Positions 21,653 to 64,000 of a DNA stretch of 64,000 nt are shown here, in pieces. The notes under the pieces are model-generated. The model was not told the origin of the DNA and did no database searches. It saw only the letters and a list, made by a program, of their open reading frames with translations. The DNA lies in the NCBI RefSeq assembly GCF_025612915.1, contig NC_069115.1:25663757-25727756 (forward strand), written 5' to 3'. Every line of letters begins with the position of its first letter. Positions within the stretch are counted from its first letter, which is position 1. Origin of the DNA: Crassostrea angulata. Lineage: Eukaryota. The position numbers and the translations under genes were made by a program.

Positions 21653-22248
21653 CTACAAAAGAGTACATTTAATGTATATCTAATATACCGGTAATGTATA
21701 TGTAGTCTATATATTAACAAAAATATAGCCAAATCTTATTTCTGATTTTCATACACAATATCTAATGTACATATACAAGTATCAATTGGATATCCCAAAT
21801 GTTGATTAGTTGAACTCTCAATTATAGACATATTGTAAAATAACTAAATATAAAGTGTAGATGATTAAAGATTTTTAACCATTAAAAGACACTGTTATTA
21901 TCAGTTAATCTAATGTTGTCCAGCTAAATAAGTTTTTAGCATGAATACAAACTATAATGCTATCTTAATGGGACAAATACATTAACCATTTGAAATTCCC
22001 TTTGATTTTTAAGACATTTTTATGCATAAACCTGTTTTTCTCTTAAATACTTAAATGAAAGATCCAGGCCTGGCATGCCCCGCCCCCCCCCCCCCCCCCC
22101 CCCCCTTAATATCTTTGTTCTTACATGTAGTACTCCTCAACTCGATCCTTTGTATTTATATTTTCTGTTTCATATGTAATGTACAACAAAGTTTTATGAG
22201 TTGAATACATAATAATAATTCAGTCAATCAACTGTGTAAAAAACACAC

Positions 22249-27413: not shown

Positions 27414-28900
27414 ATGAGATACTGTGGAATGATTAGACTTCGTGGTGGCTCAATTTTCGTGGAATTCGTTGGTACCTCTCATGCACGAAATAACATCCTC
27501 CACGAATTGATAAATTGGGGTAATAAAGTCATAATTATACCCCCGCAAACGAAGTTTAGGGGGGTATATTGGTTTCACCCTGTCCGTCTGTCTGTCCGTC
27601 CGTCTGTCCGTCTGTCTGTAGACGCAACTTTGTCCCCCCTATAGAATTTTTTATTACTGCATGGAACAGTTTGAAAATTTGTACATATGTTGAACACCAT
27701 CTGAAGATGTGCACCTGCAATTTTTTTTAAGATCAGACAAGATTTAATGATTTTATGACAGTTTTCATTTTCCTTATTCTATATATTGTACACTAATGTT
27801 GAAAAGTAAGGGAGGTAATCCTTACAGATTTTATTAATTAATTAATAGAAAACACTCTAAAATATATTTATATAAATACATCCAGATGGAGTTTTTTGTC
27901 TTTATGTCTTAATTAATAAAAAAAAAATTATTTTTTATAAGTATTCTATCAACTGACAATGCAAAGTTTTTGTTTGTCAATGATAAATTCTTATGAGCTA
28001 ATGAGAACATCAAAGACAAGTGTGGCTGAATTCATTTGTCCCAAGGGAGCCATTATCTGAGCCATGGTTCAGATGGAGCATGTGTCTAGGGGAAATTGAT
28101 AATCTGTAAAATGGGTGATGGTTTTGGGGCTATTTTAAAACTGTTTCATGTAAACCAAAAGGTCTATCATTATAAGGAAATAAATAATATAATTATTAAT
28201 AAAGAAGTTAAACTATTTTTAAAGGTTGTTTAGATTCATTTGTCAAGTAATTCGTGAAGTGACCCTATTGGGCATTAATTTAAATGAAATTCAAAATTAC
28301 TGATATGATTGTAGTGTTTTGGCAATTTTAGAATTGTTTGTAATATTAAATTTTCTTTTTTACATATTTTTACATAGTATGGTAATTATGGTAATATTTG
28401 GGAGTTTATTAAATTTAACAAGCTCATCAAAGAAAATCATAGTCCTATGGGATCAATTTTCTGATATGGAGTTCAATTGTGCCATAGGAAAAAGTGAGGA
28501 AAATTTGAAACAACTAATTGCATTTGTCAAGACTCTTATTAGAAAGATATTGAAAGTTTTATCAACAGAAGAGCATTGCTTGGCTACCGGTATTTCTATT
28601 CACTGCAAAGGGAGGGGTTATTGTCATTTTGTTGGTTTTTCTTTAAATCAATTAAATTAAAAAAAATATATCATCAAATACATACATTTGTAAATGTATT
28701 ACTGTTATAGATATGTATTTACAGTGAAATTCTGACAATTTTGATTTTGATTTTTCTTTGTTAACTATTTTTTTTTTTTTTACATTTCTAGAATTTTTTT
28801 TTTGTATGTGTTCCAAACCTTTATTATTCAATTCAATTATTTGTCCCATTTGAAATTAGCCTAGCGGGGGTATTAGTCCCATTAGGACAGTTCTAGTTCC
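27414..28900. repeat. Composite interspersed repeat, reference copy (other copies 33363-34430 + 38886-39061 + 39866-40010, and 62440-62900)
   Basis: Shared blocks include TATACCCCCGCAAACGAAGTTTAGGGGGGTATA hairpin, a (GTCC/GTCT)n tract, and a conserved ORF frame (..SSSKKIIVLWDQFSDMEF.C.IG...KTLIRK..KVLSTEEHCLATGISI.CKG..; track ORFs 28319..28660 and 62626..62841). Confidence 0.7.
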
Positions 28901-32145: not shown

Positions 32146-34639
32146 ATAGAAAGGTGATTATAAATTGCAGAAATGAAAGACCGACCTTTATTAATCGGAG
32201 AAATCCTCGAAAAGGTAGAAAAAAGGGGGTGCATTTTAAAGAACTACTAATTCAAATCCAACGTAATTTTGCATATTAAATAATCCTTATGGATAGGAAA
32301 ATATAAATTGCAAAAATTATCGGTGAATTCTGTTTCAAATTTGAGTTATTTACGAAAATTAAAATAGAGATAATCGCAGTCAATCAGTTCATAACTTTGG
32401 GTTTGGTATTCCATATCGAAAACGAAAGTTCTTTGTATAAAGTGTGTATAAAGTAGCCATGTTTCAATGTTGACGCATGACAAACGGGTTAAACTGAAAA
32501 AGATGAATTTGCTTGTTGTGCAACAGTTTACGTGCGAAGGGATACTTGAAACATGCCAAACATACTTGTGCCAATTTCGTGAAGTGAATTGAGGTTAAAT
32601 CTTTCAATGCATTGACATTTTCACTCGTGACCATGGTTTTACGTTGTTTTTAATTTCGTTTATGCTTTTGAATTGTTTACAATTTTCCCTACAAACCATA
32701 TATATTCAGCTGTGTCAAGTTTCGAATTATAAGCAAGATACAGAGCTTTGCTCACAGAACTGAGGCCATGCTTTTGTTTATTCTGAATAGGAAATACCAA
32801 GTTTAAAAATCTTAATTTTAAGTTGAATGTTATTAACTCTTGTGAACAAAAATTTTGTATCTGTATCTTGCTTATAATTCTACGATTGATGCTGAAATTG
32901 TGATTTATCACTAGAAATGTCTCACTAAACATTAAATACTTATACAGAAAAATTAAAAGAATGATATGCCGTAACAACGTTTTGGGGCCCCTCCTTATAC
33001 GATGAATCTACACCAACTTTGTTGGTTTTTCAGACACAATTAAATAAAAACGACCTCTTTAAAACAGTTTTAAAAATTACTGTTACGGAGATAAATGTTT
33101 TATCGCTATTCTTAAGGTAGTCCTATACTCGGCACTAAATGGGCTCAAACTTTGTAAACTTGGTTTTAAATTATAGTCATACATCCTAGAAACTGATAAA
33201 TGAAAAAAAAGAAGATAGGTCCACATGCTTATTTTTTGTTATTGGATGTAATCCATTGCACCCATGTTTTGACATTCTTGAAAAAATATATATTCTCAAT
33301 TTCCTCTTGTGAATTATTATTTATTCCATAACAAATGAAGTCTAATATGCAGAATGGAACATATACATTTCATTATACCCCCGCAAACGAAGTTTAGGGG
33401 GGTATATTGGTTTCACCCTGTCCGTCTGTCCGTCTGTCTGTCTGTCCGTCTATCTGTAGACGCAACTTTGTCCCCCCTATAGAATTTTTTATTACTGCAT
33501 GGAACAGTTTGAAAATTTGTACATATGTTGAACACCATCTGAAGATGTGCACCTGCAATTTTTTTAAGATCAGACATGATTTATTGATTTTATGACAGTT
33601 TTCATTTTCCTTATTCTATATATTGTACACTGATGTTGAAAAGTAAGGGAGGTAATCCTTACAGATTTTATTAATTAATTAATAGTATTAAAACACTCTA
33701 TAATATTTTTATTTAAATACATCCAGATGGAGATTTTTTGTCTTTATGTATTAATTAATAAATTTTTTTATTTTTTATAAGTATTCTTTCAACTGACAAT
33801 GCAAAGTTTTTGTTTGTCAATGATAAATTCTTATGAGCTAATAAGAACATCAACGACAAGTGTGGCTGAATTCATTTGTCCCAAGGGAGTCATTATCTGA
33901 GCCATGGTTCAAATGGCCCATGTGTTTAGGGAAAATTGATAATCTGTATAATGGGTGATGGTTTTGGGGCTATTTTAAAACTGTTTCATGTAAACCAAAA
34001 GTTTCTATCATTATAAGGAAATAAATAATATCATTATTAATAAAGAAGTTAAACTATTTTTAGAAGTTGTTTAAATTTATTAGTCAACTAAATTGATGAA
34101 GTGACCCTATTGGGCATTAATTGAAATGAAATTCAAAATCACTGATATGATTGTAGTGTTTTGGCAATTTTAAAATTGTTTGTAATATTAAATTTTCTTT
34201 TTTTCATAATTTTACATAGTATGGTAATTATGGTAATGTTTTGGGAGTTTATTAAATTTAACAAGCTCATCAAAGAAAATCATAGTCCTATGGGATCAAT
34301 TTTCTGATATGGAGTTCCATTGTGCCATAGGAGAAAGTGAGGAAATTTGAAACAACTAATTGCATCTGTCAAGACTCCTATTAGAAAGATATTGAAAGTT
34401 TTATCAACAGAAGAGCATTGCTTGGCTACTACCCATACAAAAAAAAAGCACTAAAAAGTTATACCTATGAGCCCTTAAAAAAGTTACAAAAAAGTCATAA
34501 CTAAGTTAGCACAATTTGGAACCATCTGATCAATTATGGTTCCAAATTAGCATCAAAAAGTTATACCTATATTGTAACTTTTTGCTTAAGTACAAAAAAG
34601 TCATAACTAGAGTGTAACTATTGACAATTTATTTTTTTC

Positions 34640-35235
34640 ATAAAAATAAATAGGTATAAAAAAGTTATCAAAAAGTTATAATAAAGTTATCATTTAGGTA
34701 CAAAAAAGTTACAAATTAAAGTTACAGAAAAGTTATCATTTAGGTACAAAAAAGTTATACATATAGGTATAGAAAAGTTATCATTTAGGTACAGAAAAGT
34801 TATAGATGTAGGTACAGAAAAGTTATACATATAGTTACAGAAAAGTTATCATTTAGGTACAGAAAAGTTATACGTATAGTTACAGAAAAGTTATCATTTA
34901 GGTACAGAAAAGTTATAGACGTAGGTACAGAAAAGTTATACATATAGTTACAGAAAAGTTATACATATAGTTACAGAAAAGTTATCATTTAGGTACAGAA
35001 AAGTTATACATATAGTTACAGAAAAGTTATCATTTAGGTACAGAAAAGTTATAGATGTAGGTACAGAAAAGTTATCATTTAGGTACAGAAAAGTTATAGA
35101 TGTAGGTACAGAAAAGTTATACATAAAGTTACAGAAAAGTTATTGTTTAGGTACAGAAAAGTTATAGATGTAGGTACAAAAAAGTTATCATTTAGGTACA
35201 GAAAAGTTACACAGAAAAATTACAGATGTAGGCAA
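34640..35235. repeat. Tandem array, 21-22-bp unit AGGTACAGAAAAGTTATCATTT / ..TTATAGATGT, with 43-bp and 64-bp higher-order periodicity; a degenerate lead-in starts at 34431
   Basis: Direct reading of the sequence. Internal to the 4.46-kb TIR element. Confidence 0.8.
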
Positions 35236-38200
35236 AAAATATCTATCTGTATCATAAACTTCAGATAAAAAAAAACCCCAGGTACATGTACAGGTGTTAT
35301 ACTGATGAAAAAAAAGTCCCTAATGTTGACATGAACTTTTCATCAAATTGTTTTTGCTCTTGAATAGGAATTTAAAATCATATCTGTTCATGTGAGCAGA
35401 AGAACACAAGTCAATGTTTATGTTAATCAATATGTTTACTGAATTATATTTACATCTAATGAGTATGCTTTCCTCCATTTCTTATGGAAACTTATAGTTA
35501 ACGCCTTGTTTCACGATCGGTCGAAACCTATAATGACCTTAGAAACATCATTGAAATAATCAGGATATCAATGCACTCACATTCCCATTGAAGACAATTT
35601 GGCTGTTTCTTTTAGCTAACGTACTGATGCACATTAAAAATAATATAGTAAATTTAACTTACTCTTTACAAACAATTTATTAATTTGTTAAAAGAAAGAT
35701 GTAAATATAAACAATATAACTTTCTTTGACGATTCATGCAGGTAATGAAGGGAGCAATGATTGCAGAAAAAATTTACATAACTCGCTAATGCGGGTAATG
35801 TATTTTTTCTGCAATGTCGCTACATTCATATCCCGCATATGTCACCAAAAAAGCATTTTATTGTTTACATAATTATCTCAAATCATTACAGACCCTATAT
35901 GCAAGTTTTTTAAATAAAGCAATAATCTAACATAAAAGCATTTGGGATTACATGTGTGTCTAATGTTCTTGCTAAATTTGAATAGAAAGTTTGAAAAACA
36001 TTATTTTGTAAACCAAAATTTGACCAAAACCTTCATAATTAAAGCATGTTTTAGGTTAAATTCCTAACATATACTAGCATGATTTTGTTCCAAACATACT
36101 AGTATGATTTTTAAAACAGTCCTGGTTCTAGATGATACCAATGACCTGCAGTAATTTATCAGCAAACAACTGGATCTGTTTCTTGAATCTGTTGAACTTC
36201 CTAAAATGTATAAAAAAGAATGTTTCATTATGGCAATTTCTTACTACATGTACTTTCATTGTAACTGTTAAAATCCTTGACAACTACCTTATACTTAAAA
36301 CAGAAAATTATATAGCATACCAAGTTGAATATATATGTGACCAGCACCTGGCAGGTGAAAACTGGTTTCTGTTTACATGGCTGCATGTATTTCTATGGGA
36401 ACGGTTGCTCTTGTATATGATCTCTTTCATAGTATTATCCTCGTCCTCCATTAATCTAAAAGAAGGCAATAATATTTAAAACATGATACTGTTTGACAAT
36501 TTTCAATATATGTAGCATAAATTATTATTAAATATCAGTAAAACTTTTCAATTCTCTGTTGACCTAGTATCCCCCCCCCCCTCTAAAAAAAAGTCAACAT
36601 TGATACAGCATGCAGTTGCCATTATATTCTCAGATTTACAATAATTCATTTACTAAAAGATATACATAATATATGGTTAAAAATTTAAAATCTGTATCTG
36701 TATATCTTTACTTGATAAACACACACACTTACTTTTTTCATCTTGTATTAATGATGTATCTTCAATCTGGTGTACAGTCTGCTAGCTGGACTTGGTTGGG
36801 ATTTTTTCTGCAATACAATGATACTCTTTTTAAAAGAGTCGGCCATAATTTGATTACATATAGAATGTACATCACTAGATATACATGGCTGCATAGACTT
36901 TGATATAGATGATAAAATCATGCACTTCTTATTAGAATTCTTGAAATATTCCAAATGTATTTCATTTCTAAGTGCAAAGAAATAATATAGAAATTGAGAT
37001 AAGCAAACACAAATGAATTATTTAAAATGACTTGTTTGTACATCAGACTTACCCTGAATGGAAATGGTCATCCACAACTAAAGCCATATCATCCAGGTCT
37101 TAAGCATGTCTATTTTTATGAAACCACTGCTTGCAGTTTCATTACTACATACAACACGCTGTGGTTCTGCATATTTCTTGAAAAAATCAGGAAAATCTTC
37201 ACAACAACTCCTGTCTTCTTTGCCCATTTCAAAATTTGATGGCGGAATGGCAATTGTCCAATCAGAATTCACGAAAGTCAAAGTTTGAAATTTTGGCCAA
37301 TCACGATACAGCCACGATTAATACCGGGATAAATCTTTAAAATTTATTTTGGTTAAAAAACAATATTATTTACTTAATATTATCTTAAGAAGTCTGCATT
37401 TAATTGAAACAAATTTTAGTAATATTTTCTTTCCTTACAACCTGTTAGTTTATTAACCGATCATCAAAACTGGGCATTTCCGGTCTCAAGAGCCGCCATT
37501 TTGAATAATTTGAGGGAATTTTAAAAACTAAATCAATTTAAATACCAATGCATTTTTACAATTGATGAATATGTAAAACCAAAAATTATAACATTTTATT
37601 TAAATAAAACATGTTTCCCAAAGTTTATAACACAGTCCTTATAGCTATGTGCTGTTATAAATTACGATGAGAGATAGGCTTGTACTGGGAAAACATACAG
37701 ATGGAAATAGCAGTACTGTTCTTTGTTAACAGCATGTCTATTAATGAAATATGTGAATAAATATGATGAACCCATCTCATAATAACAAACAATGCTACCA
37801 CCCCTCCACAGCCCCCCCCCCCCCTCTTTCTTCGCATGCATTCGATGTCGTGGGAAAATTCTGAATCAATTTCTAGAAATCTACTCTATTCCTTTCTTCA
37901 TGGGGTAGGCCATGAAAAGTTGGAAAAATTTTCAGTGATAATATAAAGTTGATGCTACCCCTTAGTATTTAACAGTGTTTAAACGAAATCGTAATAATTA
38001 TGTCTAATGATGTTCAAGAGACCGATAACAAAATAATGCTTGCAGGAGCAAAATAAAAAATGTCTGCTGGTCAAAACACACACATCAACTTTTTATCTTA
38101 AACAAACATCAGTGTCATCACAGCACGGACTAAGCATGACCTCTTTAGACACCCTTCACTGTTAACCTGGGATGTGTGTGCGTTCAGGCGGAAAGTGATT

Positions 38201-38504
38201 TCCTGTTTCTGCCTTATAAAAACAATAAAATTTTGGACAGGTGTTTGTGTTGCAATTGATGGACTGGATTCCCGTTATAATGGTTTTGTCATTGTTTTCA
38301 AACAAATCTTAGTGATTTTACTACCCAGTGTGTGATCAACCTACATCTACCCCCCCCCCCCCACTTATCGTGATTTTATAAAAAAAACGATATTTTATAT
38401 TAGTTTTTAGATTTATTGTGATAAAAGTCTACTTTAGACTTGAACCTCTTGGATAAGATACTCTTAAATTTTTAGTGTAAAAATGACAAAGTCCAAACAC
38501 ATTC

Positions 38505-38760
38505 ACAAATTGACTAAGTTCAATGTAGGTACATTTTAGTTATACTGAACATTTTCTAAGTTCAATGTAGGTACATTTCAGTTATACTGAACATTTTCTA
38601 AGTTCAATGTAGGTACATTTCAGTTATACTGAAAAGTTTCGAAGTTCAATGTAGGTACATTTTAGTTATACTGAAAAGTTTCTAAGTTCAATGTAGGTAC
38701 ATTTTAGTTATACTAAGAAGTTTCTAAGTTCCATGTAGGTACATTTTAGTTATAGGGCAA
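38505..38760. repeat. Tandem array, 46-bp unit TAAGTTCAATGTAGGTACATTTTAGTTATACTGAACATTTTC x about 5.5
   Basis: Direct reading. Related GTTACAGAAAAGTTAT motif follows at 38780-38870. Internal to the 4.46-kb TIR element. Confidence 0.8.
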
Positions 38761-39061
38761 AAAGTTTAAGTCCAATCTAGGTACAAGAAAGTTATAACTT
38801 TTATGTGCCTAAATCTTAGGTACATAAAAGTTACACTTTAGTTACAGAAAAGTTATGACTAAGTGTAACTTTTTTTTGTATGGGTTAAGTATTTCCATTT
38901 ACTGCAAAGGGAGGGGTTATTGTCATTTTGTTGGTTTTTCTTTAAATCAATTAAATTAAAAAAAATATCATCAGATACATACATTTGTTAATGTATTACT
39001 GTTATAGATATGTATTTACAGTGAAATTCTGACAATTTTCATTTTAATTTTTCTTTCTTAA

Positions 39062-39865
39062 AGCTATACACGCTATAATTTACGTCAATTTTGAATGACA
39101 GTGAAAACGCATGTGTTTGTCTACTTATAAAAGTTATCCTTAATCTGTAAATTACAAGGGTGAATTCCATCTCGTTACAAAGATATAGATTTTTAATTGT
39201 TTATTTTCCTGCCATGAAAATATACCTTTTCATGAATATTGATGAAGGAAGAGAAAACCGACCTCATTGCGCATGTCCGTGGAGAACTAGGTGGTCGTTA
39301 TTGTTTGCCTAATTAAATATCCAACTTGAATTTTAATATGCTTAACAATTGTTAATTTGAAATACATACAAGTATAATGAGTAAAATACGTTTGTCATTC
39401 ACGATACCCTTACTTCTGTGTTAACACTTATAGGATCTATAAATAGCACATAGGGGAAAAACACAGGTCTACGTCATTTTTTTAAAGGAGGTAATCAAAT
39501 CTACTCACAGGCTTGTATTTTTTTCTTTTGTTTGTACTCGTATATCGGACAAATTTATGCTTTACTGAAAATATCCTTTCCTTTGCGAAACTATCACTAT
39601 TATGAAGATGTTGACCCTTCACCAGTTTTGGTATGATAGGCTAAATTTAGCTGTCGATATCACGTGATATAGATTGATATTCACGAGGAGGCATTACTTT
39701 CCTGGCAGGAAAATAAATATTTTTTATTGTTTAATATTTGATATATTTGTTATGTGATCGAATTTAGCATTATAATTAACAGAATAAAGGTAACTTTTAT
39801 TTGTAATCAAACACATACATTTTCCCCTTTAATCAAAATTGACGCAAATTATAGCGTGTATAGCT
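39062..39865. mobile_element. piggyBac-type MITE (804 bp) with 33-bp TIRs and TTAA target-site duplication
   Basis: TIR AGCTATACACGCTATAATTT(A/G)CGTCAATTTTGA at both ends. TTAA at 39058-61 and 39866-69. The paralogous copy at 28750-28760 has a single uninterrupted TTAA (ctttgTTAActattt). Confidence 0.65.
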
Positions 39866-41124
39866 TTAACAAATTATTTTTTTTTTTACAATTCTAGAAT
39901 TAACTTTTTTTGTATGTGTTCCAAACCTTTATTATTCAATTCAATTATTTGTCCCATTTGAAATTAGCCTTGCGGGGGTATTAGTCCCATTAGGACAGTT
40001 CTAGTTTAATCATATATAATCATTTTTTGGAAAAATGTTATTAAATATTCTTCTAATGTGTCATATATGAGGCAAAATTTGTCAAAATAAATTGCAAAAT
40101 TTTACATTGCAGAGATAAATTCGGGTTATATTTCAAGTTTTATGGACTCAAAGTGAAATTAATTGATTTTATTTCACAGATTAGCATCTAAGAAAAGAAA
40201 TTTTCTTTAAAAAAATATATGTTGACGGTTTACTTTTACAAGTATACCCCCCAAATTTTTTTTCTCAAAAAATCATGAAATATCACTTCTTTCAATGTAC
40301 ATGAAATCTGAGTTTATTTAAAATATTTACAAGTTTTTCACAATTAATTTAAGTTTAAAAATAGATAAAATGAAATAAAACTTAGTAATTTCTCAATTAA
40401 CAATATTTTAATAACTTTTCAGGGTATGTTATGTTAGCGATTGTGCAACACATATAATACAATATAAATTACATGTTGTACATAATAAAATACAATGTGC
40501 CTTAATAATTCATCATGCAAATGGAACATGGTAAATACCTCAAGAAAATTAAATGAATATTTTCTCATTACCATATGCATTTTATACCAACAGGTCAAAC
40601 CAAATTAGTGCATGTTTAGTAACAAAAATTTAGTACATGATCTTAATTCAATACCACTTACAAAGAACTGCCTTCATACAAGCTGCAGAAAAGCTTTTGA
40701 TTCAATCATAATATCTAGAAGCGATAAATAATTGCACAGTTCACTGTAAAAATTTTACATTCTTGTATTTGATTGACACCTTGACAAAAACGTGTAAAAC
40801 AAAATTTCTAATGAGCTTCAGTGTACAAAAAGCCTAAAAGCATTTCAGATGTTTAAAAGATATTGCACAACTTTCTCAATAACTGCTTTTGATTTTGACA
40901 CCTTGCATCTTCTGGAATTAGCAATTGGGTCACTGAAAACATTTCTTATGCCATTGTTGGGGTCATGCTTGTGAATAATTTTAAGCTTGGCTAAATTCAA
41001 GGAAAGTCCCACTAGCTTACTCATAGTTGCTGCAGAAATAACCTTCATCTTAACAAGAGGCTCTAACAATGACTTGCAGCTGTAATAAGACGGTCTAACA
41101 AGATTTTCACCATTACAGTTAACT

Positions 41125-41606
41125 TTAAGTTTTTCGTCTTTGGAGAACTTCTACGTCTGAAACTGCATTGTGCGCATTGTATGTTTCTCCCAGAAGTTTC
41201 TGGACAAGGTTTTCTTGCCTGTAATTACCCATTTCTGCTTTTGGATAAATCCTTTTGGACAACTTGAGAGTATCAACAAATCCAAAAACAATTTCTTGAA
41301 ATCTCTCAAGTAGGTTGTGCTTGGAAAGATTATGCATAAGCACAGGGATATCAAAACTTATGATATTATGTCCAATCAAAACTGCTTTTGGAAAACTCGA
41401 AACAAATGCAATAAACTGTTCAAGTCCTTCGAAAATTGTTAACGAATCAACAGCTTCTCCCTTCAGCTTTAGAACTCCTCCATAATATGTTAATCCTGTG
41501 GCAGCTGAGGCACCAATACTGATAGTACAGGTTGGTCTTGTATAGACGCTAAGCTCTCTCTCCCCACACACACAAGCGATTTGGAGGATGTCTGATGTGC
41601 AATAAC
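41125..41606 (-). CDS. Exonuclease-like gene, 3' exon with DEDDh (DnaQ-like) 3'-5' exonuclease motifs Exo II and Exo III
   Basis: Track ORF 41125..41631 contains LIGHNIISFDIPVLMHNL (Exo II, HN..FD) and YNAHNAVSDVEVL (Exo III, H-x-A-x-x-D). The 5' boundary and the phase of the exon2-exon3 junction are not resolved; the obvious AG at 41607/8 gives the wrong phase. Confidence 0.55.
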
Positions 41607-41700
41607 CTGCAATATAATGTAAAAAGTACACTTATCCTTCCAAATAATTTGTAATCAAATATCAATTACGCATACATAACAAAGGTTACTACAAACTAAC

Positions 41701-41830
41701 CTAATCCTGTAGTTTCTAGGTAAAAAAACTATCAAGGAACTGCTGTCTACGGAGAACTCTTTTGACGGAATGGTGATGTCCTCTTTGTCAGTACATTCAT
41801 CAAATCCAATATTGGTGCTGTAGGTTTCAC
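41701..41830 (-). CDS. Exonuclease-like gene, exon 2 (GETYSTNIGFDECTDKEDITIPSKEFSVDSSSLIVFLPRNYRI)
   Basis: Acceptor ttttttttag|GTG and donor ATTAG|gttagt. Frame is continuous with exon 1. Corresponds to part of track ORF 41655..41936. Confidence 0.4.
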
Positions 41831-41949
41831 CTAAAAAAAATTTGGAACAACTTTTATACATTGCAATCATGATATGATATGCTCTAGCTTTACAAAAATT
41901 GCCATTATATACAGTGTGAAATAAGTACATGTACATGTATTTTATTTAC

Positions 41950-42091
41950 CCTCAAGCACTGAGTGAGTAGCATCTTTTGATAACCTTTCACTCTTCAGTT
42001 TGGCACTGCGTTGGGCTTGAAGTAACCGCTTCCTTTTTAATGAATTTGCCAGTTTTGGGGTGTATTTTACCGTAAATCTGCCGGGAGACAT
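41950..42091 (-). CDS. Exonuclease-like gene, exon 1 (MSPGRFTVKYTPKLANSLKRKRLLQAQRSAKLKSERLSKDATHSVLE)
   Basis: ATG at 42091 on the minus strand. Open frame ends at donor GAGG|gtaaat. Phase-1 exit matches exon 2. Too short for the ORF track. Confidence 0.4.
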
Positions 42092-42566
42092 CTGACACCT
42101 CTTGTTAAGCTAATTAAAAGACAGAAAAACACTTATTTATTAATTACTTCAACTACATAGAATTTAACACGTAATTCAAATTCATTAAGGATAACTATTC
42201 ATTACATGTTAAAATGTCATGAACATGTATTATTTCTAGCAATATACATGTATTAAACATAAAAATCAAAAATTCATTTAAAATTACATGGAATGCTGGA
42301 TTAAAAAAAAGGCTCTCTGAAATTATTTGATATGTTAGTAATAATTTAATAACAATTATTATGATTTCAAATATATGAACAACTGAAAAATAAAGTGAAA
42401 AATTATGCAATATGACCAGTTTGCAAATATACATTTTCATGGAACAAAATACATTCATAAATATTATAAGCATATTAAATATTTTGGGTAGCACTAGGTA
42501 ACAAGATATATAAAAACATATAAGTGTGTATGTGTGCAGGCAGATTCATACATGTATTACAATCTG

Positions 42567-45500
42567 CACTGGATGAAATATCTGGTTTCAGCGCTGCGGA
42601 AACCCTTTGGAAACTCTGCGGAAACTTAAGGTTACCCTAAGTTTCCGACGGGTTTCAGCACGGAAACTTCAAGTTTCATTAAGTTTCCGCAGTGCTGAAA
42701 CTTAGGCTGTCCATGAATCCAAATGGTTTCCGCAACGGAAACTTACTGAAACTTGAAGTTTCTGCATAGTTTCAATCTCCATATACGTTTGGGATACATA
42801 TTGTTTACAAATGGTTTCCGCGACGGAAACTTACTGAAACTTGAAGTTTTTGCATAGTTTCAACCTCCATATACAATTGGGAAACATTTTGTTTACAAAG
42901 GGTTTCCGCAACTGAAACTTACTGAAACTTTTTATATTTTTGCTTTCACAAAAGCTGAGCAAGGTTTCTACTTTATGTAAAAACAAAACAATTTCAAACA
43001 GTTCCAAATTTATTTTGTTCAAAAATCTGAAATTGTTTCTAATAATAAATAAAATACAGCCAAGATACAATAATGGAGAAACATCCATATGGCAATTCCC
43101 TTATTAGGGACTTTTATTTAAAAAATGATAAAATTGCACAAGAAAAAAAACTCCCATAGAAATCTTTACATTTGTATTTTTTTCATCTCAATTAAATGCC
43201 TATCAAATCTCCCTTTAAAAATGCAACAAAGATCTTACTTTTTTAAAAATATGAATGCAATTTACAAAATAACTGCACGTACATGAATAAACAAAGAAAA
43301 CTTCACTGTTACATGAACATGATACACTTGTCTCAATTTGTTTTGAACTACAATGAATATGTACACCATAAAATATTTTTGAAAAGTCTAAAGTATCCAT
43401 CTTTTAAAAAAACAAAAAAAAACACTACAAGATAGTAGTTGACTATAGAGGTATGACCCAGATTTGATTTGAATATGTCAATAAATTCCAAAATGAGGTA
43501 AAAGTGACCCACTTACAAGTTGGGATAAACCTTTTCTTTGTGAGTAATATAATCTAATGTTTTACAATAGAACAGGATTTGATATCATTTTTTTGATAAT
43601 CCATTAAGTCCAAAGTGAACTTTTCATTTCCACCCATGATGTACCAACTGATCAGATTTTAATATCATAAGCCTGTCAGTATTTAATAGATGACCCAGAG
43701 GGAGATATGAAAAGCTTATTGGCCAATAAAAAGCTAACAATGGAGCAGTCTGTCAAATCATGTGCAAAAATATGATGTACACATTTAATTAATTATGCTG
43801 ATTGCAACACACTTCATTCCTGATGAATATTCTTCTTTACACATGGTTTACCTTCCTACATTTCACTACTTTACCTACATTAATATTTTTAATTCCAAGA
43901 CATGAAGTAAAATATACATTGTTTATATATGACAAGTATTACTACATGTACATGTACTTGCTTTTTGTAGCATGAATGTATAAAATACAAAGTATCACAC
44001 AGATCATTCACCTTACAATTCTCATCAATACCAGCATTTTACTTATGATATAAAAGCTAATTCCAATTATATATTAGTTACATAACACAGATTAAAATAA
44101 AACCCACATGGAAACAACTTTCCATCCAAGTAATTTTGTAATATAAAAATTGTAATACATGGGGTATATGTTGTCTTTATATATTTTCATATACGACATA
44201 ATTGAATATTGTTTGGTGTATTTTATCATTTCTATGACCCATGCATTCATCTCCTAATGCAGTGTTTTTACATTTAAGATTGGTTTCTTAATTTTTCATA
44301 TATTGCTGCAAATAAAAACTAAGTTAAAACAAAGAAAATGGAAAAAAAAGTAGTTAACACTTATCAACTTGGAGATGTGAGGATATATGTTACATGGAGT
44401 CTAATATTTTATGCAATATTTGCAAATATAACAAATTATTTAAGAAAATGAAAGTTAATATCTGCAAGGTCTAATCAATCATTTAATAAGTCAAAACCAT
44501 GTGATTTTCTAAGATTCTAGCTTACAGACAGACATTGTAATATACTGGTATTTGATCATATAAAAAAAGTACTTTTATAGTTTATAGGTTTTTTGAAATG
44601 AGAATACTTTACAGTTAAAAAGTCTTGTTCTGCAGAGGTTTAGTCGGGTCGTAGAGATGTGTCCATTCGAATCAATAAGGAGTGTCCTTGGCTGTTGTTG
44701 ATGTAACCCGAGTCGTAGTTTATGGAAATAGGCCTTTTTGGGGGACTTTCGAGCATTGTCCCGACCGGTGAAGCACTCATATGATCTCATCATGGCTACA
44801 GCAGACTTAGTAGTTCTAGACAATGGTAGCATTAAAATTCTTCTTCTTGCGATGAACTTGTTCCTTTCACTGGGCTGTACTTTATGATGTCTGTTCTATT
44901 TATCTTAAACAAGAATAATAAAGTTTCATTTAGATTTTTAAACAATAAACATAAGTCATTCAGCCTAACATGTAATAAAAGCATTCTGAATAAAATTCTG
45001 AATACAGAAGCTACTATGCAGTTGCCAGTTGCTGTTTAAACTATGTCATATAATGACTACAGTAGTATCTGGTCTAAAATGTTTCACTTTATGTTTGAAG
45101 CTATGTTATTTTCATTTTGATTCAATTATTGTTTGTTGAACAATGGAAAAAATAATCAACAATAAGTGTGTTTCACCCCCCCCCCCCCAATCAACCTCCT
45201 TTTCCAGAACTAAGACCTGGATTTCCCAAAAATTACTACAGTAAATTATAAACATCCAACACATGTATAAGTTAATGGTGAAAATAATCAATTTCAAAGC
45301 AATACCATGCGTTCACATCGTCCAGCTGGTCAAAACATTCACCCGAATCACCGAAGTCGGAACAGAGGATGCAACTAATCACAGGAAACATTTAATTTGT
45401 ATGCTGTCAATGCTGAAAAAGAAAAACGTGAAAGATTTCATTTTCCGGATTTATTTAATAAATTTTTTTCGTTACATTTAGAGTTTGTAAATTGTATAAT

Positions 45501-46869
45501 GTGCGAAAGATTCTTTGTTCGTCTTGTTTACCAACCAAGCATTCATATATTAGGGACGTTTATATAATTATATATGTGTATACCCTGGATAATCTTGATT
45601 ATCATGCATATAAAGTTGGTTAATGGTTAACTTGGTCAAAACGTATATTTAAAAGAAATACGGTAATAAAAATTAAAACGCCGAACCAAGTTTGAAAAAA
45701 TGACGCCATCTTGATTTGATGGCTCGAGATCTCGTTTACAAATGAGGGATAAATTAGAGCCTTGAAAATGTTATTGGGAGTATCTAGATTGTGAATTAAG
45801 TTACCTTGACATGAGTTCTTCATTCCTGCATTATCTCCTTGTTGTAGAGGCTATTAATGCTTCTCAATTCTCCATTTTACAACAGCACCTTCTTGTCCAT
45901 TTTAACCTTCGCTCGGAATCATAAAGTGCGCCAATACTGACCAATCAGAACCTGCTAAATCTTGGAAAAGTGCATCTTGGGATAGTTTAAAATGAATAAT
46001 GTTTAATCAAAATTATCATTTTTTACCAAATAGTTAACTTTTTACATGTATAATTATTTTAAATAAGAACTGTCGGAGTCAGTATTTCCTGGTTAAATAC
46101 GACAAAGTATTGGCGTGTGTTTGTTACAATTGTATTTGTAACACGTGATTAACCAAACAAAAAATGGCCGACTGTTTGTTTACAAATGTCTAATGAAATT
46201 AAACAAGTTTTAATGAGACATATGTATCAGATTTTGTCTTTAACTATATTTTATTTACATGTACTGATGATTTTGCCAAACTAAATATGATAGAGCCATA
46301 TATAGTTTACTGACAAGTTGGTCTTGACTTGTCCAATTTTCACCGCGATTCTAAGCTCGGTCATATTCTTATTCAAAATATAGAGGTGTGAAAATATTAT
46401 GTTCATCACAGAGCAGGTTCTGCATGAACACACAGAAATCACAAATATAATTAAATGCCGATCAATTAACGGGGTCCGGTTAACAGCGTTCACCCATACG
46501 GTGAATTTACAACTACGATGAATTGATGGCAATTATTTTACAGTTACACATATGCACTGATTGGTCATGCGATGAACAGTCGTACGTTAAGAATACTTAT
46601 GAAATTAAAATACAAACGCGTTAAACAAGCCGGGAAGTAAGACGTACATGTCGGACTGATATATAAACAAAATATAATTTTAATTATTTGGTATACTTTC
46701 TACATCAAATGTATACGAATGTATAATCAAATTTTAAAAATGGTGCAAAGTTAGACTTAACCAATAGGCATATAGCCCCCCCCCCCCCCCCCACTTTTTC
46801 TCGCCGGAAATGTAATTGTTCCTAAATTTACCTTGAAAGATTGAGAAGTTGGAGTAATAGGCATACTAG

Positions 46870-46902
<33 letters not shown>

Positions 46903-48411
46903 ACACGGATTAGGAATTTCATGATTTTGCGAAAAAAAAATTGGGTAGGGAAATTTATTTTCGGAAGTATATAGTATAGGTATACCCCCCCCCCCCCCCC
47001 ACCACGGATTAGGATTTTCATGATTTTGGGAATTAGGGTTTTTTAGGGTTTTTCCTCAATATTTCTGAGGATAAGTCTAGCCCCCCTTTCAATTTGCTTC
47101 CGACGCCAGTGAATCATGATACAGTCATACATGCAGTAAAGTCTGAAATGCATGTAAATAATTAAACAATTATTATATTAGACTCAAACTCCAAGTGGGT
47201 TTTACTTGTTATTATCAACTGTAGAATTTAAAAAAAAAAATTCCTGTGTACATGTGTTGGCGTGGTATTAAAAAAGAAATGAATTAGCTCTAAACTTCAG
47301 GTTGTACGAATATTTGGTACGATTTGTAAAAATTTACAACGACTTTACCTTAATTTGTTTGCTTAATTAGTTACTGTACCTCAAGGTTCATTCAAATGAT
47401 AACTAAATGATTTAAGAAGGAGTCTTACAAAATAGGTATATTAATTTATTTTACTAAATAATTATAATTTACTTATCAGTTTTCTAACTCAGGTACACAC
47501 AAATTGAAAAAAAATTCCCACCGGGCTCCAGTTATAAACTCACGCTTCGTACTGTGTATATGTTATGTAACAGTCTTTTGTTCACTCCTGACAGAAAAAA
47601 CCCTGCAATCCACACAGAATATACAGGAAAATCACAGGGGAGGTCACCTGGACAAAGAATGTATACACATGTATACACGTGCCCGAGTACCTAAGATTAA
47701 TGATTTCATCATATGCATTAAACAAGATCAGACATCAGTTTTTCTTTTCAAATTCAATTAATTACTTAGTAAGGTTCTTAATCGCCTTATTTGCCACATT
47801 TGAAGATAGTTACACGTATACATATAGTTTCAGTCACGCTGAAACCTTACTATACATTTTAGTATGTACGGATTCATTATCATTAGGCTAGAATTAAACT
47901 TGATTAAACCTGTTGAAAATAAATGATATTACTATTAAACTCAAATTAAATTTAGTAATAGTTTCAGCAATGCGTAAACCATTTGGAATCTTAACTTAAA
48001 GTTTCAGCATACTGAAACCTAGCGAAAATGTTCTGAAACTGATTGATATTTCCATAATAATTTACACAACTTTTCACATGATTCAAATTTAGTTTCCGCA
48101 TTGCGGAAACCATCAGGAATCTTAACTTAAAGTTTCAGCATACTGAAACCTAGCGGAAATGTTCTGAAACTGATTGATATTTCCATAATAATTTACACAA
48201 CTATTCACACGATTCAAATTTAGTTTCCGCATTGCGGAAACCATCAGGAATCTTAGACTAAAGTTTCTGCTGACTGAAACCTAACGGATACTTGCTGAAT
48301 CGATATAATGGTTTCCGCATTGCGGAAACTATACATGAAACTTCAACTTCAAGTTTCAGCAAGGTTTCCATATAGTTTCAGTTTTGCTGAAACTTGATTT
48401 TTCATCCAGTG
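42567..48411. mobile_element. CACTA/EnSpm-like (Chapaev-like) non-autonomous DNA transposon, about 5.8 kb, with 3-bp TSD CTG
   Basis: Termini 5'-CACTGGATGAAA..GTTTCAGC and ..GCTGAAAC..TTTCATCCAGTG-3' are inverted. Identical CTG lies immediately outside both ends (42564-66 and 48412-14). Subterminal tandem repeats of about 105 bp (42590-42960) and about 130 bp (47870-48390) carry GTTTCCGCAACGGAAAC-type palindromes. No long transposase ORF inside. Confidence 0.6.
46875..46911. repeat. Poly-C tract of 36 nt, the longest of many C/G homopolymers
   Basis: Other long runs include G25 at 18577, C26 at 22079, G18 at 25468, G17 at 26394, C18 at 29755, C17 at 31511, C16 at 37808, C16 at 45175, C22 at 46777, C19 at 46985 and a G-rich run at 51851-51888. 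Confidence 0.9.
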
Positions 48412-48877
48412 CTGGCAATCAAATATTTATGAAATCAAAATTAACAACAATAAAACAAACAACTGGTAATTCTAAATAAAAAAGTTATTAAAACAATCTG
48501 TCAATCTAAACTGCATCTGCAATTAACAGTTCTACCACAGTGATATATTTGTAACCCTCATTCTTTTGGCATACAGAGGCTGAAACTCTTGATTTTAGAC
48601 TCTCAGATCTGCCATAAAACCTTTCATCATAATTGTGTGTGTCTCAAATACATGTACTTAAAACATGTAGTATGAAATATTATTTACTAGAATACTTGCA
48701 CTTGTGATTCTTTTTCAGTAAACTTACATTCTTTTTGGTGCTTTGCTTGCTACCATATGGTTGAAATTTTCGTTACTTTGCGTGGATCCTAAAGTGGCCA
48801 ATTCCTCGACTCTTCCAACATATACTTTAAAAGGTCTTCCAGGGCAACACGTAATGGCTGATCTGTCAGAGGCTTAC

Positions 48878-48953
48878 CATATGGCAAATTCCTTGGCTTG
48901 TACGTAGCCTGATTTTTCACTCCTGCACCATGCCCCACATTTGTTATGTTCAC
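48878..48953 (-). CDS. Transposase-derived gene, candidate further exon (..EHNKCGAWCRSEKSGYVQAKEFAIW or alternative frame)
   Basis: Acceptor atttgatttcag|GTG and donor CATATG|gtaagc. Two open frames, so the reading frame is unresolved. Continuation downstream not found. Confidence 0.3.
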
Positions 48954-49057
48954 CTGAAATCAAATTTGATAAATTGCAGTCAATATCTAAACAAGATGAA
49001 CTTTAATACATGTACTAAAAATGTATTTAATTATATTTAATGTTTCAAAACTTAGCA

Positions 49058-49062
<5 letters not shown>

Positions 49063-49112
<50 letters not shown>
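49063..49112. repeat. (CT)18(AT)7 compound microsatellite inside an intron of the transposase-derived gene
   Basis: Direct reading. Confidence 0.9.
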
Positions 49113-49113
<1 letters not shown>

Positions 49114-49119
49114 CCATAC

Positions 49120-49378
49120 AGATGAGGAACAATCTTTTGCAGATCTTCTTTAAGCTGTGTTGATTTTGTTTGACACAATACATAAAGCATCTCTCCACAT
49201 GACCCCGAACTTTAACATTTTTCAATGCTTTGAAGGTGTTACTCATATCAACTAGCTTGCCTGTGAAACCTTTGCGAGTATGATTACTATAATTGCACTT
49301 CTTTCTGATGTTAGGATCCACAGTGGCTTTGACCCTCGCAATCGTGGTAGAATCATTGTCCATGACCAAAGTGTTGAC
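49120..49378 (-). CDS. Transposase-derived gene exon (VNTLVMDNDSTTIARVKATVDPNIRKKCNYSNHTRKGFTGKLVDMSNTFKALKNVKVRGHVERCFMYCVKQNQHSLKKICKRLFLI..), likely second catalytic Asp region
   Basis: Track ORF 49097..49414. Acceptor gaattgaag|GTC (phase 0) after a 95-nt intron. VMDNDSTT resembles the hAT-like second motif (v-t-D-N-a-S-n). Followed by a C...H-T motif. The 3' donor is ATCT|gtatgg or ATG|gtatat, just before a (CT)n(TA)n microsatellite. Confidence 0.55.
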
Positions 49379-51700: not shown

Positions 51701-52420
51701 TGGGCCTTAGTAAAATAGAGCGATATGCCTGTCTATACATTGCAGTCTGAGGCTCATTGAGAGGGGTAGGGGGCTAGACTTGATCAGAAATCTTATGAGC
51801 AAAAAAAAAGATTTTGAGTACGGCTATGTCTACCTTTGCAAAAAAAAAAGTTGGGGGTGGGGGGTGGTGGTGGGGGGGGGGGGGGGGGGCTGGACCCGTC
51901 CACCCAGTTCAGACGCCTTTGCATTGATTATACATGTAATAGCTCTATGCATTTTCAACTTTTTGGGGCCAACTCCTTATACGATAAATCTACACCAACT
52001 TTGTTGGTTTTTCAGACACAATTAAATAATTGAGAAGCAAAAAACAAAAAGGTTTTGAGCATGGCTATGTCTAACTTTGCCCCAAAAAAGTGGGGAGGGG
52101 AAACCCCCCCCTTCTACTCAGTTCCGACGCCTATGCATTGATTATACATGTACTTGTAATAGTTCTTCAACATATCACATGATAACATTTTTCATTCCAG
52201 TGTATTCATCGATCAAGTGAGTAAGGTTATAAAACGTCGCACGAGTTCACGCCTGGTAAACAACAATCGTTTATAATGCGGAAGACCAATAAAATTTTTG
52301 AATGTTCTTAATTTGAGCGTCTTGAGGTACAATTTTCTTCTTTCACATGTAGGAATTTTAAAAATAAAATACAATTACTAGCTATTACAATGTAGTTGAA
52401 GATGAGTATGTACATATATA

Positions 52421-55168: not shown

Positions 55169-57534
55169 TTATGGGAGGGCGAATATAAATTGCAGAAATA
55201 AAAGTTTGATCTGTATTCAAAGCGGAGAAAACCTTGAAACTGTAGAAAAAGGGGGGTGCATTTTTAAAAATCTTCTTCTCAAGAACTACCGAGGCAAATT
55301 CAACCTAGTTTAGCATAAATTATCCTTATGGGAAGGAAAATATAAATTGCAAAAATTAAGTGGTAATTCTGTTTCAAATCTGAGTTATTACGAAAATAAT
55401 AATAAAGGAAAGGCGTGTTTCAATCAGTTTAATAGCTTCGGGTTCGGCATACGGTAAAATGATTCCATACTTCTAAAACGAGGTTCTTTGTTTAAAGCAG
55501 CCATGACATTATACGAAAAAGGTCTTTCTGACTATGATGAATTTGCTTGTTGTGCAACAGTTTGCGTATGAAGGGAAATTTTGAAACATACAAAATATAT
55601 TGGTGCCGATTTTGTGAAGTAAATTGAGGCTAAATATTTCAATGCGTTGATAGTTTTCACACATGACGATGGTGTTAGCTTGTTCTGATTTTCGTTTCGT
55701 TCTCATTATGCTTTGTAACCTGGGAACTATCGTCTGTATTTCGTGATTTTTACGTATCAAATCAAACAGAGACTTCGGTAAATCAAACAGTTAACTGTTT
55801 ACCTGCGCAAATTAAGCAAAATCGGATGTAGGGGTACTGAAATACAATTCATTCTATCGGTAATTCGGCATAATCTTTTGCGTAATGGTACATGTAGATT
55901 AATGCAATAGGTTTTGTTGAGATGCTCGGCATTTTCTCGAGTTTATTCAGTTTAAATAGAGTTTGATATCGCTGACGGAAATATGTAGGTATATACATGT
56001 ATATATATGATTCATTTCGAAAAAATAAATTGTGTTCTTTATTTGTTATACATGTAGTGCATGTTTCTTGTGTTTAATTGTTTACAATTTCTATTTACTA
56101 ACCATATTTGAGTGTTAAGCTTCGAATTATAAGCAAGATACAGAGATTTGCTCACAATTCTATGTTTGTACACAGATCTTAAAAACTAAAGCTTAAAAAA
56201 TTAAAAAATTTGTCAATATTTATTAAGAAAATTTACAAAGCCTGTTCTTCCAGAAACCAACTTTAACAACTTATTGTATTGTAACCTTAACCTTTTTAGC
56301 TCACCTGAGGGTGGGGCCACAATGGGGGGTCGAAGTTTAACAAATGAATATATAGAGTAAATCTTTAAAAATCTTCTCCTCAGAAACTAATCAGCCAGGA
56401 AAGCTGAAACTTGTGTGAAAGCATCATCAGGTAATGTAGATAAAAATTTGTGAAAATCATGATCTCCGGAGGTAGGGTGGGGCCACAATGAAGGATCGAA
56501 GTTTTACATAGGAATATATAGAATAAATCTTTAAAAATCTTCTTCTCAGAAACTAATCGGCCAGGAAAGCTGACACCTGTGTGGAAGTATCCTCAGGTAG
56601 TGTAGATTCAAAGTTGTGAAAATCATGACCCCCGGGGTACGGTGGGGCCACAATGGGGGATCGAAGTTTAATATAGGAATATATAGAGTAAATCTTTAAA
56701 AATCTTCTTCTCAGAAACTAATCTGCCGGCAATGCTGAATCTTCTTCGGAAGCATCCTCAGGTAGTGTTGATTCACAGTTGTGAAAATAATAACCCCTGG
56801 GGGTAGAATGGGGCCACAATGGGGGGTCGAAGTTTAACATATGATTATATAGAGTAAATCTTTAAAAATCTTCTTCTCAGAAACTAATTAGCCAGGAAAG
56901 CTGAAACTTGTGTGGAAGCATCCTCAGGTAGTGTAGATTCAAATTTGTGAAAATCATAACCCTGGGGGTAGGTTAGGGCCACAATGGGAGGTCGATGTTT
57001 TACATAGGAATAAACAGTGTAAATCTTTTAAAATCTTCTTCTCAGAAACTAATCAGCCAGGAAAGCTGAAACTTGTGTGAAAGCATCCTCAGGTAGTGTA
57101 GATTCATAGTTGTGAAAATCATGATCCCCAGGGGTAGGGTGGGGCCACAATGGGGGGGTCAAAGTTTAACAAAGGAATATATAGGGTAAATCTTTAAAAA
57201 TCTTCTCAGAAACTAATCAGCCAGATGTTTCTTTATAATTGTTAAGAATTTGGCCCCAGGACAATTCTTTGGCCTCCCGAGAAGGTTCAGAGTTTGATGT
57301 ACGTTTATATCTAATATATAAACTATTGTTAAGGATCATTTTGAGAACTGCAATACTCAACATATGATATGACTATAAAATCATCTTGTTAGAAAAGGGA
57401 CTAATGATTATAAACATAAGAATATCCAGGGGAAAATGGATTTTATTTATACAGGATCTACATGTATTATTGTACATTGTCCAGATAGTTTGTATTATGA
57501 CTCCATTAAGCTGATTTTATCATACCTATTATTC

Positions 57535-61493: not shown

Positions 61494-61721
61494 GATTCCC
61501 CGTTCCCACTTTATCCAGGAGAAACACTCCCAGATGCTCCTCGATTTTTGAAAAATGAGCCTGATCTAACAAATGCCATTAAACCCTTACCTGTTATTAA
61601 AGCCAATTATGCCATCAGATTGATTGCAAATATTGACTTTGAAGATGCCCAGGGTCAGCATATGGCAGGAGAGAAGTGGCAGCTGGAAGGACCCCTCACA
61701 TACAAACCTCAGCCTGAAGCA
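61494..61721 (+). CDS. MVP: MVP exon encoding [76 protein letters not shown]
   Basis: Acceptor ttattttcag|GAT and donor GAAGCA|gtatgt. Strong match to human [14 protein letters not shown]...[38 protein letters not shown]. Same frame as track ORF 61548..61889, which runs on into the intron. Confidence 0.9.
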
Positions 61722-61849
61722 GTATGTATCATGTATAAAAAAACTTCTTCTATTAGTTCACTGTCTGATTGGAGTAGAACACTATTTTTATGCCCCCCTT
61801 CGGAGAAGGGAGGGCATATTTCTTTGCTGCTGACCGGTCGGTCGGTCGG

Positions 61850-62350
61850 TCCACCAACAGTTTCCGTTCATTTTCTTTGCAAAGGATAAACATATTGAAA
61901 TGAATTTTTGTATACAGGTTTATCATGATAATATCTAGGTCAAGTTCAATATTGGGTTCGATCGAGCAATTTTTGACAGAGTTATTGCCCTTGGACTTAG
62001 AAAAATTCGAGTTATTTGCAGTTTCCGCTCATTTCTTTTGCAGAGGATGAACATATTGAAATGAAATTTTGTATACAGGTTTATCTTGATAATATCTAGG
62101 TCAAGTTTGATATTGGGTTCGATCGAGCAATTTTCGACAGAGTAATTGCCCTTGGACTTAAAAAAATACAGGTTATTTGCAGTTTCGCTCATTTTTTTAG
62201 CAGAGGGTGCACATATTAATATGAAATTTGATATGCAGGTTTATCTAAATAATATCGAGGTCAAATTTGATTTTGGGTATGATAGAGCAATTTGTGGCAG
62301 AGTTATGCCCCTTGGACTTAGAAAAATTCTAGTTATTTGCAGTTTACGTT
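61850..62350. repeat. About 120-bp tandem repeat x about 3.5 inside a foldback-ended element (hairpin ends TATGCCCCCTTCGGAGAAGGGAGGGCATAT at 61786 and AAGGGAGGGGGGCATATGG at 62375)
   Basis: Unit ..GCAGTTTCCGCTCATTTCTTTTGCAGAGGATGAACATATTGAAATGAAATTTTGTATACAGGTTTATCTTGATAATATCTAGGTCAAGTTTGATATTGGGTTCGATCGAGCAATTTTCGACAGAGTAATTGCCCTTGGACTTAGAAAAATTC.. repeated. Lies immediately 3' of MVP exon 61494-61721. Confidence 0.7.
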
Positions 62351-63099: not shown

Positions 63100-63890
63100 G
63101 GGATTCAAAGTTGTGAAAATTTAGGACCACGCCCTTTTGTAAAGGGAGATAATAAGGAATTTATGAATATTTTCGAGAAATTTTCAAAAATCTTCTTATC
63201 AAGAACCATAAGACCAGGTAAGCTGAAACTTGTGTGAAAGCATCCTCAGGTAGTGTAGATTCAAAGTTGTGAAAATCATGACCCCCGAGGGTAGGGTGGG
63301 CCCACAATGGGGGGTCGAAGTTTAACATAGGAATATATAAAGTAAATCTTTAAAAATCTTCTTCTTAGAAATTAATCAGCCAGGAAAGCTGAAACTTTGT
63401 GAAAGCATCCTCAGGTAGTGTAGATTCAAAGTTGTGAAAATCATGAATTCCGGGGGAAGGGTGGGGCCACAATGGGGGGTCGAAGTTTCACATAGGAATA
63501 TATAAAGTAAATCTTTAAAAATGTTCTTCTCAGAAACTAATCAGCCAGCAAAGCTGAAACTTGTGTGGAAGCATCCTCAGGTAGTGTAGATTCAAAGTTG
63601 TCAAAATCATAAATCATAAACCCCGGGGGTAATATTGGGCCACAACTGGGGGTCAAAGTTTTACATATGAATATATAGAGTAAATCTTTAAAAATCTTCT
63701 TCTCAGAAACTAATCAGCCAGGAAAGGTGAAACTTGTTTCAAAGCATCCTCAGGTAGTGTAGATTTAAAGTTGTGAAAATCATGACCCCCGGGTGTAGGG
63801 TGGGGCCACAATGGGGGGTCGAAGTTTAACATAGGAATATATAGAGTAAATCTTTAAAATCTTCTTCTCAGAAACTAATCAGCCAGATAA
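63100..63890. repeat. Second array of the same about 165-bp satellite (about 4.5 copies), again downstream of a truncated TTAGCTCACCTGAGC head (62945)
   Basis: Same unit as 56300-57235. Followed by the same tail segment (..TTGAGAACTGCAATACTCAACAT) at the window end. Confidence 0.75.
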
Positions 63891-64000
63891 TAATTGTTAA
63901 GCCCAGGACAATTCTTTGGCCTCATAAGAAGGTATAGAGTTTATATCCCATATATAAACTATTGTTAAGGATCTTTTTGAGAACTGCAATACTCAACATT

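Follow-up and report, generated by a model that had tools for sequence, protein, structure and literature searches.

We analyzed a 64,000-nucleotide stretch of the oyster Crassostrea angulata (RefSeq assembly GCF_025612915.1, contig NC_069115.1, positions 25,663,757 to 25,727,756 of the forward strand), called the window here and numbered from its first base. The window is ~32% GC and repeat-rich, and only four of its open reading frames (ORFs) reach 110 aa. On the minus strand, at about 40400-49200, lies an exonuclease gene whose homologs carry PML_C; the ORF at 41125-41631 encodes an RNase_T / Exu-like exonuclease domain. An intron of this gene contains a 5,845-bp element at 42567-48411, with terminal inverted repeats (TIRs), a 3-bp target-site duplication (TSD) and arrays of repeats just inside both ends. 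We read it, with good but not complete confidence, as one non-autonomous class II TIR transposon of EnSpm/CACTA type that inserted at a CTG in the intron. The features of the locus and the evidence for each are as follows.

41108-41598, minus strand: coding part of the last exon, with an RNase_T / Exu RNase H-like exonuclease domain (ORF, domain match and homologous contigs)
42110-48727, minus strand: host intron containing the element (transcripts L002 and L047-L049 join 48728 to 42109; GT...AG read in the sequence)
42564-42566, unstranded: left TSD copy, CTG (sequence, and the single CTG at the junction of contig L001, described below)
42567-42578, plus strand: left TIR, CACTGGATGAAA (exact over 12 nt, 15/16 over 16 nt, imperfect to ~42633)
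42585-42930, unstranded: left subterminal region (24 GTTTC/GAAAC pentamers and about seven short palindromes of the form GTTTC(C/A)GC-N-GC(G/T)GAAAC)
42931-47826, unstranded: AT-rich non-coding interior (ORF, Pfam, tRNA, Rfam and window self-comparison)
46763-47032, plus strand: local imperfect ~100-bp duplication with three poly-C runs (repeat families D4 and D10)
47827-48393, unstranded: right subterminal region (22 GTTTC/GAAAC pentamers and about nine palindromes)
48400-48411, minus strand: right TIR, TTTCATCCAGTG (sequence, 12-mer search and end-to-end alignment)
48412-48414, unstranded: right TSD copy, CTG (sequence and the L001 empty site)

The sequence over the left junction is ...caatCTG followed directly by CACTGGATGAAA (42564-42578), and over the right junction TTTCATCCAGTG followed by CTGgcaat... 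(48400-48414); the right end is the exact reverse complement of the left. The element begins CACTGG at 42567 and ends CCAGTG at 48411, in agreement with the 5'-CAC(TA/TG)...GTG-3' termini of EnSpm/CACTA elements. Its inverted repeats are likewise as short as the ~10-30 bp of that superfamily, with identity at 12/12 and then 15/16 positions that decays over ~67 nt; across this length the two ends align at ~76% identity (a manual count on the alignment), with GTTTC/GAAAC motifs in register. The duplication is exactly 3 bp long, the length made by EnSpm/CACTA elements, with CTG on both flanks and one CTG when the site is empty, and the adjoining bases differ (T before the left CTG, G after the right one). 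The identical CTG trinucleotides that the initial annotation had reported at the termini therefore hold up as an exact 3-bp duplication bordering CACTG termini. With up to one mismatch allowed, the TIR 12-mer does not occur in the window beyond the two inverted termini; in the literature it matched unrelated primer lists only. When we counted 12-nt inverted repeats with identical 3-nt flanks within 10 kb, the real window held 22 such pairs, against a mean of 3.8 in Markov shuffles; requiring a CAC start left two pairs in the real window and none in 30 shuffles. Because such pairs are not rare by chance, the termini alone are suggestive, and it is the clustering of motifs at both ends together with the empty site that puts the element beyond chance.

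The empty site was found in a homologous contig. Using the exonuclease ORF, ~930 bp from the left end, as a handle, we retrieved homologous proteins and contigs, among them the 3,789-bp public Logan contig SRR327419_48808 (L001). Positions 27-338 of L001 correspond to window positions 48722 to 48412, and positions 336-2911 to window positions 42566 to 40005, so that the two alignments overlap solely in the CTG at L001 336-338. The junction reads ...catgtattacaatCTGgccatcgaatattt..., given also as ...catgtattacaatCTGgccatcgaatatttatgaa..., and what is missing is exactly 5,845 bp plus one CTG, with breakpoints at the outermost bases of the inverted repeat. L001 is 90% identical to the window over 2,633 columns, with 128 gaps and ~5% substitutions. 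It is also colinear with a third window segment, 33107-33374, and is therefore the same type of locus rather than a chance match. Since an overlap of 3 nt cannot make a k-mer assembler join the flanks, the junction must exist in the reads. Such an empty site, which the initial annotation had suggested looking for as a lone CTG at an orthologous or paralogous locus, means that 42567-48411 went in as a whole, duplicating the 3-bp CTG. The insertion is later than the split between the window sequence and L001, and the perfect duplication and perfect 12-nt termini suggest that it is fairly young. More distant contigs (L053-L057) lack the element as well, together with ~110 bp around the site, and for this reason are uninformative about the duplication; another contig, L051, ends 95 bp before the insertion site.

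Just inside both ends, the sequence is dominated by short direct and inverted repeats. On average the window contains 0.65 GTTTC/GAAAC pentamers per 200 bp, and its four richest 200-bp bins are the two ends of the element. The longer motif GTTTCMGC has 29 matches in the window where ~2 are expected, and 21 of the 29 fall within 42585-42909 and 47838-48393. Such motifs, repeated in both orientations over the few hundred bp next to each terminus, are a further characteristic of EnSpm/CACTA elements. Part of each region is organized in tandem: Tandem Repeats Finder reported an 88-bp unit in 2.4 copies (91% match) at 42720-42930 and a 131-bp unit in 2.5 copies (93% match) at 47959-48288. The palindrome GTTTCCGCATTGCGGAAAC has three exact copies in the right subterminal region, and GTTTCCGCAACGGAAAC is found at 42726-42742. 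Folded as DNA, the left hairpins have energies of -4.8 to -6.2 kcal/mol and the right hairpins of -5.9 to -8.3 kcal/mol, with z about -6. In metagenomes, GTTTCCGCATTGCGGAAAC occurred at 44 loci, 43 of them with a single match; none was further similar to the element, and we treated them as chance or bacterial palindromes. The hairpin-rich repeats placed inside each end by the initial annotation are thus confirmed by motif arrays, palindromes and folds at both ends. Its two arrays are also real, and its period of 130 bp on the right was essentially correct; its 105 bp on the left is replaced by 88 bp.

The remainder of the element appears to encode nothing. Its longest ORF is 85 aa, and a scan of the complete element translated in all six frames, with X in place of stops, detected no Pfam domain at E<=1. 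Pseudo-proteins assembled from the stop-free end segments and the longer interior ORFs had no homolog in a collection of 5.8 billion proteins at E<=0.001, and the element ends searched alone as pseudo-proteins gave zero matches in the protein collection even at E<=10. ARAGORN found no tRNA in the element and no Rfam family exceeded its threshold, the best being a miRNA hairpin at 29 bits against a gathering score of 90. These results agree with the initial description of a non-autonomous element without a long ORF, one that either lost its transposase gene or had none from the start. Compared with the remaining window sequence, the interior matches nothing but the poly-C runs, of which there are three: C17 (46776-46792), C32 (46870-46901) and C16 (46985-47000). 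The initial annotation had listed poly-C tracts (46777-47001) as a feature of the interior. The runs exist, but as a trait of the genome and not of the element, because 15 runs of C or G of at least 10 nt (10-32 nt) are spread across this 64-kb, 32%-GC window with unrelated flanks, far above the compositional expectation; further homopolymers lie, for example, at 18580-18601, 22083-22105 and 51872-51889. Adjoining the poly-C block, still inside the element, 47033-47053 holds two copies of TTAGGGTTTT, a unit that contains the telomere-like hexamer TTAGGG.

That the element lies within an exonuclease-gene intron follows from the spliced transcripts that join 48728 to 42109, with GT and AG flanking the intron on the minus strand. 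The intron measures 6,618 bp with the element and 770 bp without it. It is still spliced in the transcripts seen, which come from other individuals or gene versions. A Crassostrea gigas RNA-seq transcript contig (run SRR27190615, used in PMC11171025) matches the last exon at 98%, and one of the spliced transcripts derives from a C. gigas RNA-seq run. In public oyster read sets (contigs L001, L002 and L047-L058), the gene occurs in many versions that are 80-98% identical and differ by indels, as a hypervariable locus or, alternatively, a young multigene family would. Exon 48728-48954 of the window contains a stop codon where transcript L002 reads through.

Could the segment be something other than a single insertion? 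L001 might have lost 5.8 kb by deletion between CTG microhomologies, or its gap might be a spliced-out intron; the L001 run could be DNA or RNA in origin and 3-nt microhomologies are common. We regard either possibility as barely credible. The breakpoints match, to the base, the outermost positions of a 12-nt inverted repeat, perfect and starting with CAC, that has paired motif arrays inside, and a random loss would not hit such ends. As for splicing, the missing segment has no GT...AG or CT...AC ends in any of its four registers, and L001 retains the surrounding intron sequence, the true intron being 42110-48727. Another possibility is a composite or macro-transposon, in which two small elements in opposite orientation mobilized 4.9 kb of unrelated host DNA between them. 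The interior does lack any TE-like (transposable element-like) feature and is dissimilar to either end, and the tandem unit is 88 bp long on the left but 131 bp on the right. But no inner match to CACTGGATGAAA exists inside the element, even at two mismatches, the whole segment has a single duplication, and asymmetric subterminal regions are normal in CACTA elements (PMC2613891), all of which make a composite origin very unlikely.

If the segment is one transposon, the remaining question is its superfamily. Among superfamilies with other duplication lengths, Chapaev makes 4-bp and Mirage 2-bp duplications, and with exactly 3 bp here neither agrees with the element; GingerRoot, which makes a 6-bp duplication, was rejected as well. 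PIF/Harbinger elements make 3-bp duplications, usually TWA, and the CTG found here differs from that consensus. For hAT elements an 8-bp duplication is described, or 5-7 bp in some lineages (PMC12730594), whereas the 8-nt flanks here, ACAATCTG and CTGGCAAT, differ and the empty site shares three bases only. A non-autonomous DNA transposon of some other 3-bp-duplication superfamily, such as AcademX, Zator or an atypical PIF/Harbinger, is unlikely but retains a small share of the probability, because in animals AcademX likewise duplicates 3 bp of its target and Academ families are known from Crassostrea oysters (PMC7165386). Academ termini have a pyrimidine first and a purine last, with which CAC...GTG complies. 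The element also contains no transposase that could settle the assignment. Against this, EnSpm is recognized by a 3-bp duplication together with CAC...GTG termini (PMC12730594), and repeated direct and inverted subterminal motifs are a hallmark of CACTA elements (PMC2613891).

The assignment to EnSpm/CACTA comes from the termini, the duplication length and the architecture, and is structural, with no transposase to hand. Classification of non-autonomous elements on termini, TSD and structure is established practice (PMC4455052), and Repbase assigns to EnSpm those elements that have CAC..GTG termini and 3-bp TSDs (PMC12730594), although the EnSpm superfamily as a whole includes duplications of 2, 3 or 4 bp (PMC7165386). 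In plant CACTA elements (Spm/En, Tam1, Tgm), short CACTA TIRs occur with a duplication of 3 bases, and the direct and inverted subterminal repeats, which are asymmetric, fold into stem-loops to which TNPA binds (PMC2613891). The initial annotation had called the architecture that of EnSpm/CACTA or Chapaev elements. Its first choice is upheld by the CAC...GTG termini, the 3-bp duplication and the subterminal repeats together; the second is not, given 3 bp rather than 4 bp, and the duplication length points to EnSpm proper over Chapaev among the CMC lineages.

Several points weigh against this classification. Zator also makes 3-bp duplications. Animal AcademX elements likewise do so (PMC7165386). 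The superfamily assignment is structural only, and no transposase was found in the element and no autonomous partner in the collections searched. One copy of the element was seen, with no second in the 64-kb window, and CACTGGATGAAAWATCNNGTTTC gave 0 metagenome-contig and 0 viral-contig matches, in collections that exclude the host genome. As to L001, it may be an allele, an ortholog or a paralog, and we cannot say which, since the gene's several versions share 80-98% identity among themselves. The sole prokaryote-genome match of CACTGGATGAAAWATCNNGTTTC was a 25-nt chance match in a Lentimicrobiaceae metagenome-assembled genome, which we discarded.

How does the element compare with known systems? 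Transib and ProtoRAG make 5-bp duplications, unlike the exactly 3-bp duplication here. They share with the oyster element termini that start with CAC and belong to the wider CMCT clade, in which duplications range from 2 to 5 bp (PMC12730594). The closest likeness is to dSpm/I of maize, Tgm of soybean and the "EnSpm-N" type CMC-EnSpm entries of bivalves, which have CAC...GTG termini, a short TIR, a 3-bp duplication, asymmetric arrays of direct and inverted stem-loops, no transposase and an intronic site (PMC2613891, PMC12730594). Unlike dSpm/I and Tgm, the oyster element ends in CACTG rather than CACTA, and its motif GTTTCCGC-N3-GCGGAAAC is unrelated in sequence to the plant motifs; its host is a mollusc. 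In contrast to the maize system, no protein-coding partner is known, and the need for a TNPA-like second protein would be an extrapolation from maize. Like animal AcademX, whose superfamily occurs in oysters, the element duplicates 3 bp and has a 5'-terminal pyrimidine and a 3'-terminal purine (PMC7165386). It differs in its CACTG termini and repeated subterminal palindromes, which are not described for Academ in PMC7165386, and in that a six-frame Pfam scan of the oyster element found no remnant of an XPG nuclease or a transposase.

If En/Spm and the other CACTA elements are a guide, an autonomous relative would supply transposase in trans, which would recognize the CAC termini and cut there. 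The GTTTC(C/A)GC-N3-GC(G/T)GAAAC palindromes are putative binding sites that could unite both ends, as maize TNPA does at subterminal repeats, and the CTG duplication would result from staggered target cuts 3 nt apart and repair of the gaps. A bolder proposal, which we consider unlikely, places the element in an oyster CACTA lineage that can still move. In that lineage, a dimeric accessory protein, an animal counterpart of TNPA, would bind DNA at an operator formed by the exact palindrome GTTTCCGC-N3-GCGGAAAC. To our knowledge no such counterpart has been characterized in metazoan EnSpm elements.

Other repeats and one further gene were seen in the window. A second insertion absent from L001 spans 33375-40004, with a boundary ambiguous by 2 nt (TT); it starts (TT)ATACCCCCGCAAACGAAGTTTAGGGG and ends GGGGTATTAGTCCCATTAGGACAGTTCTAG(TT). 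From self-comparison, a 1.37-kb copy at 27534-28898 appears to be colinear with it and to lack blocks 34430-38888 and 39062-39872. In its TT target, CTAG 3' end and short inverted ATACCCC/GGGGTAT motif, this insertion resembles the Helentron-derived (HINE) rolling-circle elements. HINEs are abundant in Crassostrea (bioRxiv 10.64898/2026.02.10.705023). At 7937-10853 (2,917 bp) lies a second CAC...GTG candidate, with a perfect 17-nt inverted repeat, CACAATAAATAAAATAA, and ATG flanks; it may be another EnSpm-type non-autonomous element, with no subterminal arrays obvious. Tandem arrays of a ~165-166-bp repeat at 56308-57224 and 63162-63999 are 85-90% identical within and between arrays and are satellite-like; we assume a possible relation to the ~166-bp satellite of C. 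gigas. On the plus strand at 61548-61889, an ORF that looks like an exon has a match to the Major Vault Protein (MVP) repeat (Pfam Vault, E=4e-9); the right end of the window probably holds an MVP gene.

The result is a base-accurate oyster insertion of EnSpm/CACTA type, with full ends, duplication and empty site, which matters little beyond annotation. CMC-EnSpm elements are already annotated in Crassostrea, and their insertions are reported to be polymorphic (bioRxiv 10.64898/2026.02.10.705023). The element could seed a curated family and help to find the autonomous partner. Together with the nearby second insertion of 6.6 kb, it represents TE-driven structural differences at the exonuclease gene, which fits the report that TIR transposons and Helentron-derived elements make up much of the structural heterozygosity of Crassostrea (bioRxiv 10.64898/2026.02.10.705023). 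If a still-mobile lineage with a palindromic operator did prove to exist, it could offer a molluscan transposon tool and would introduce intron presence/absence variation into a hypervariable exonuclease gene family.

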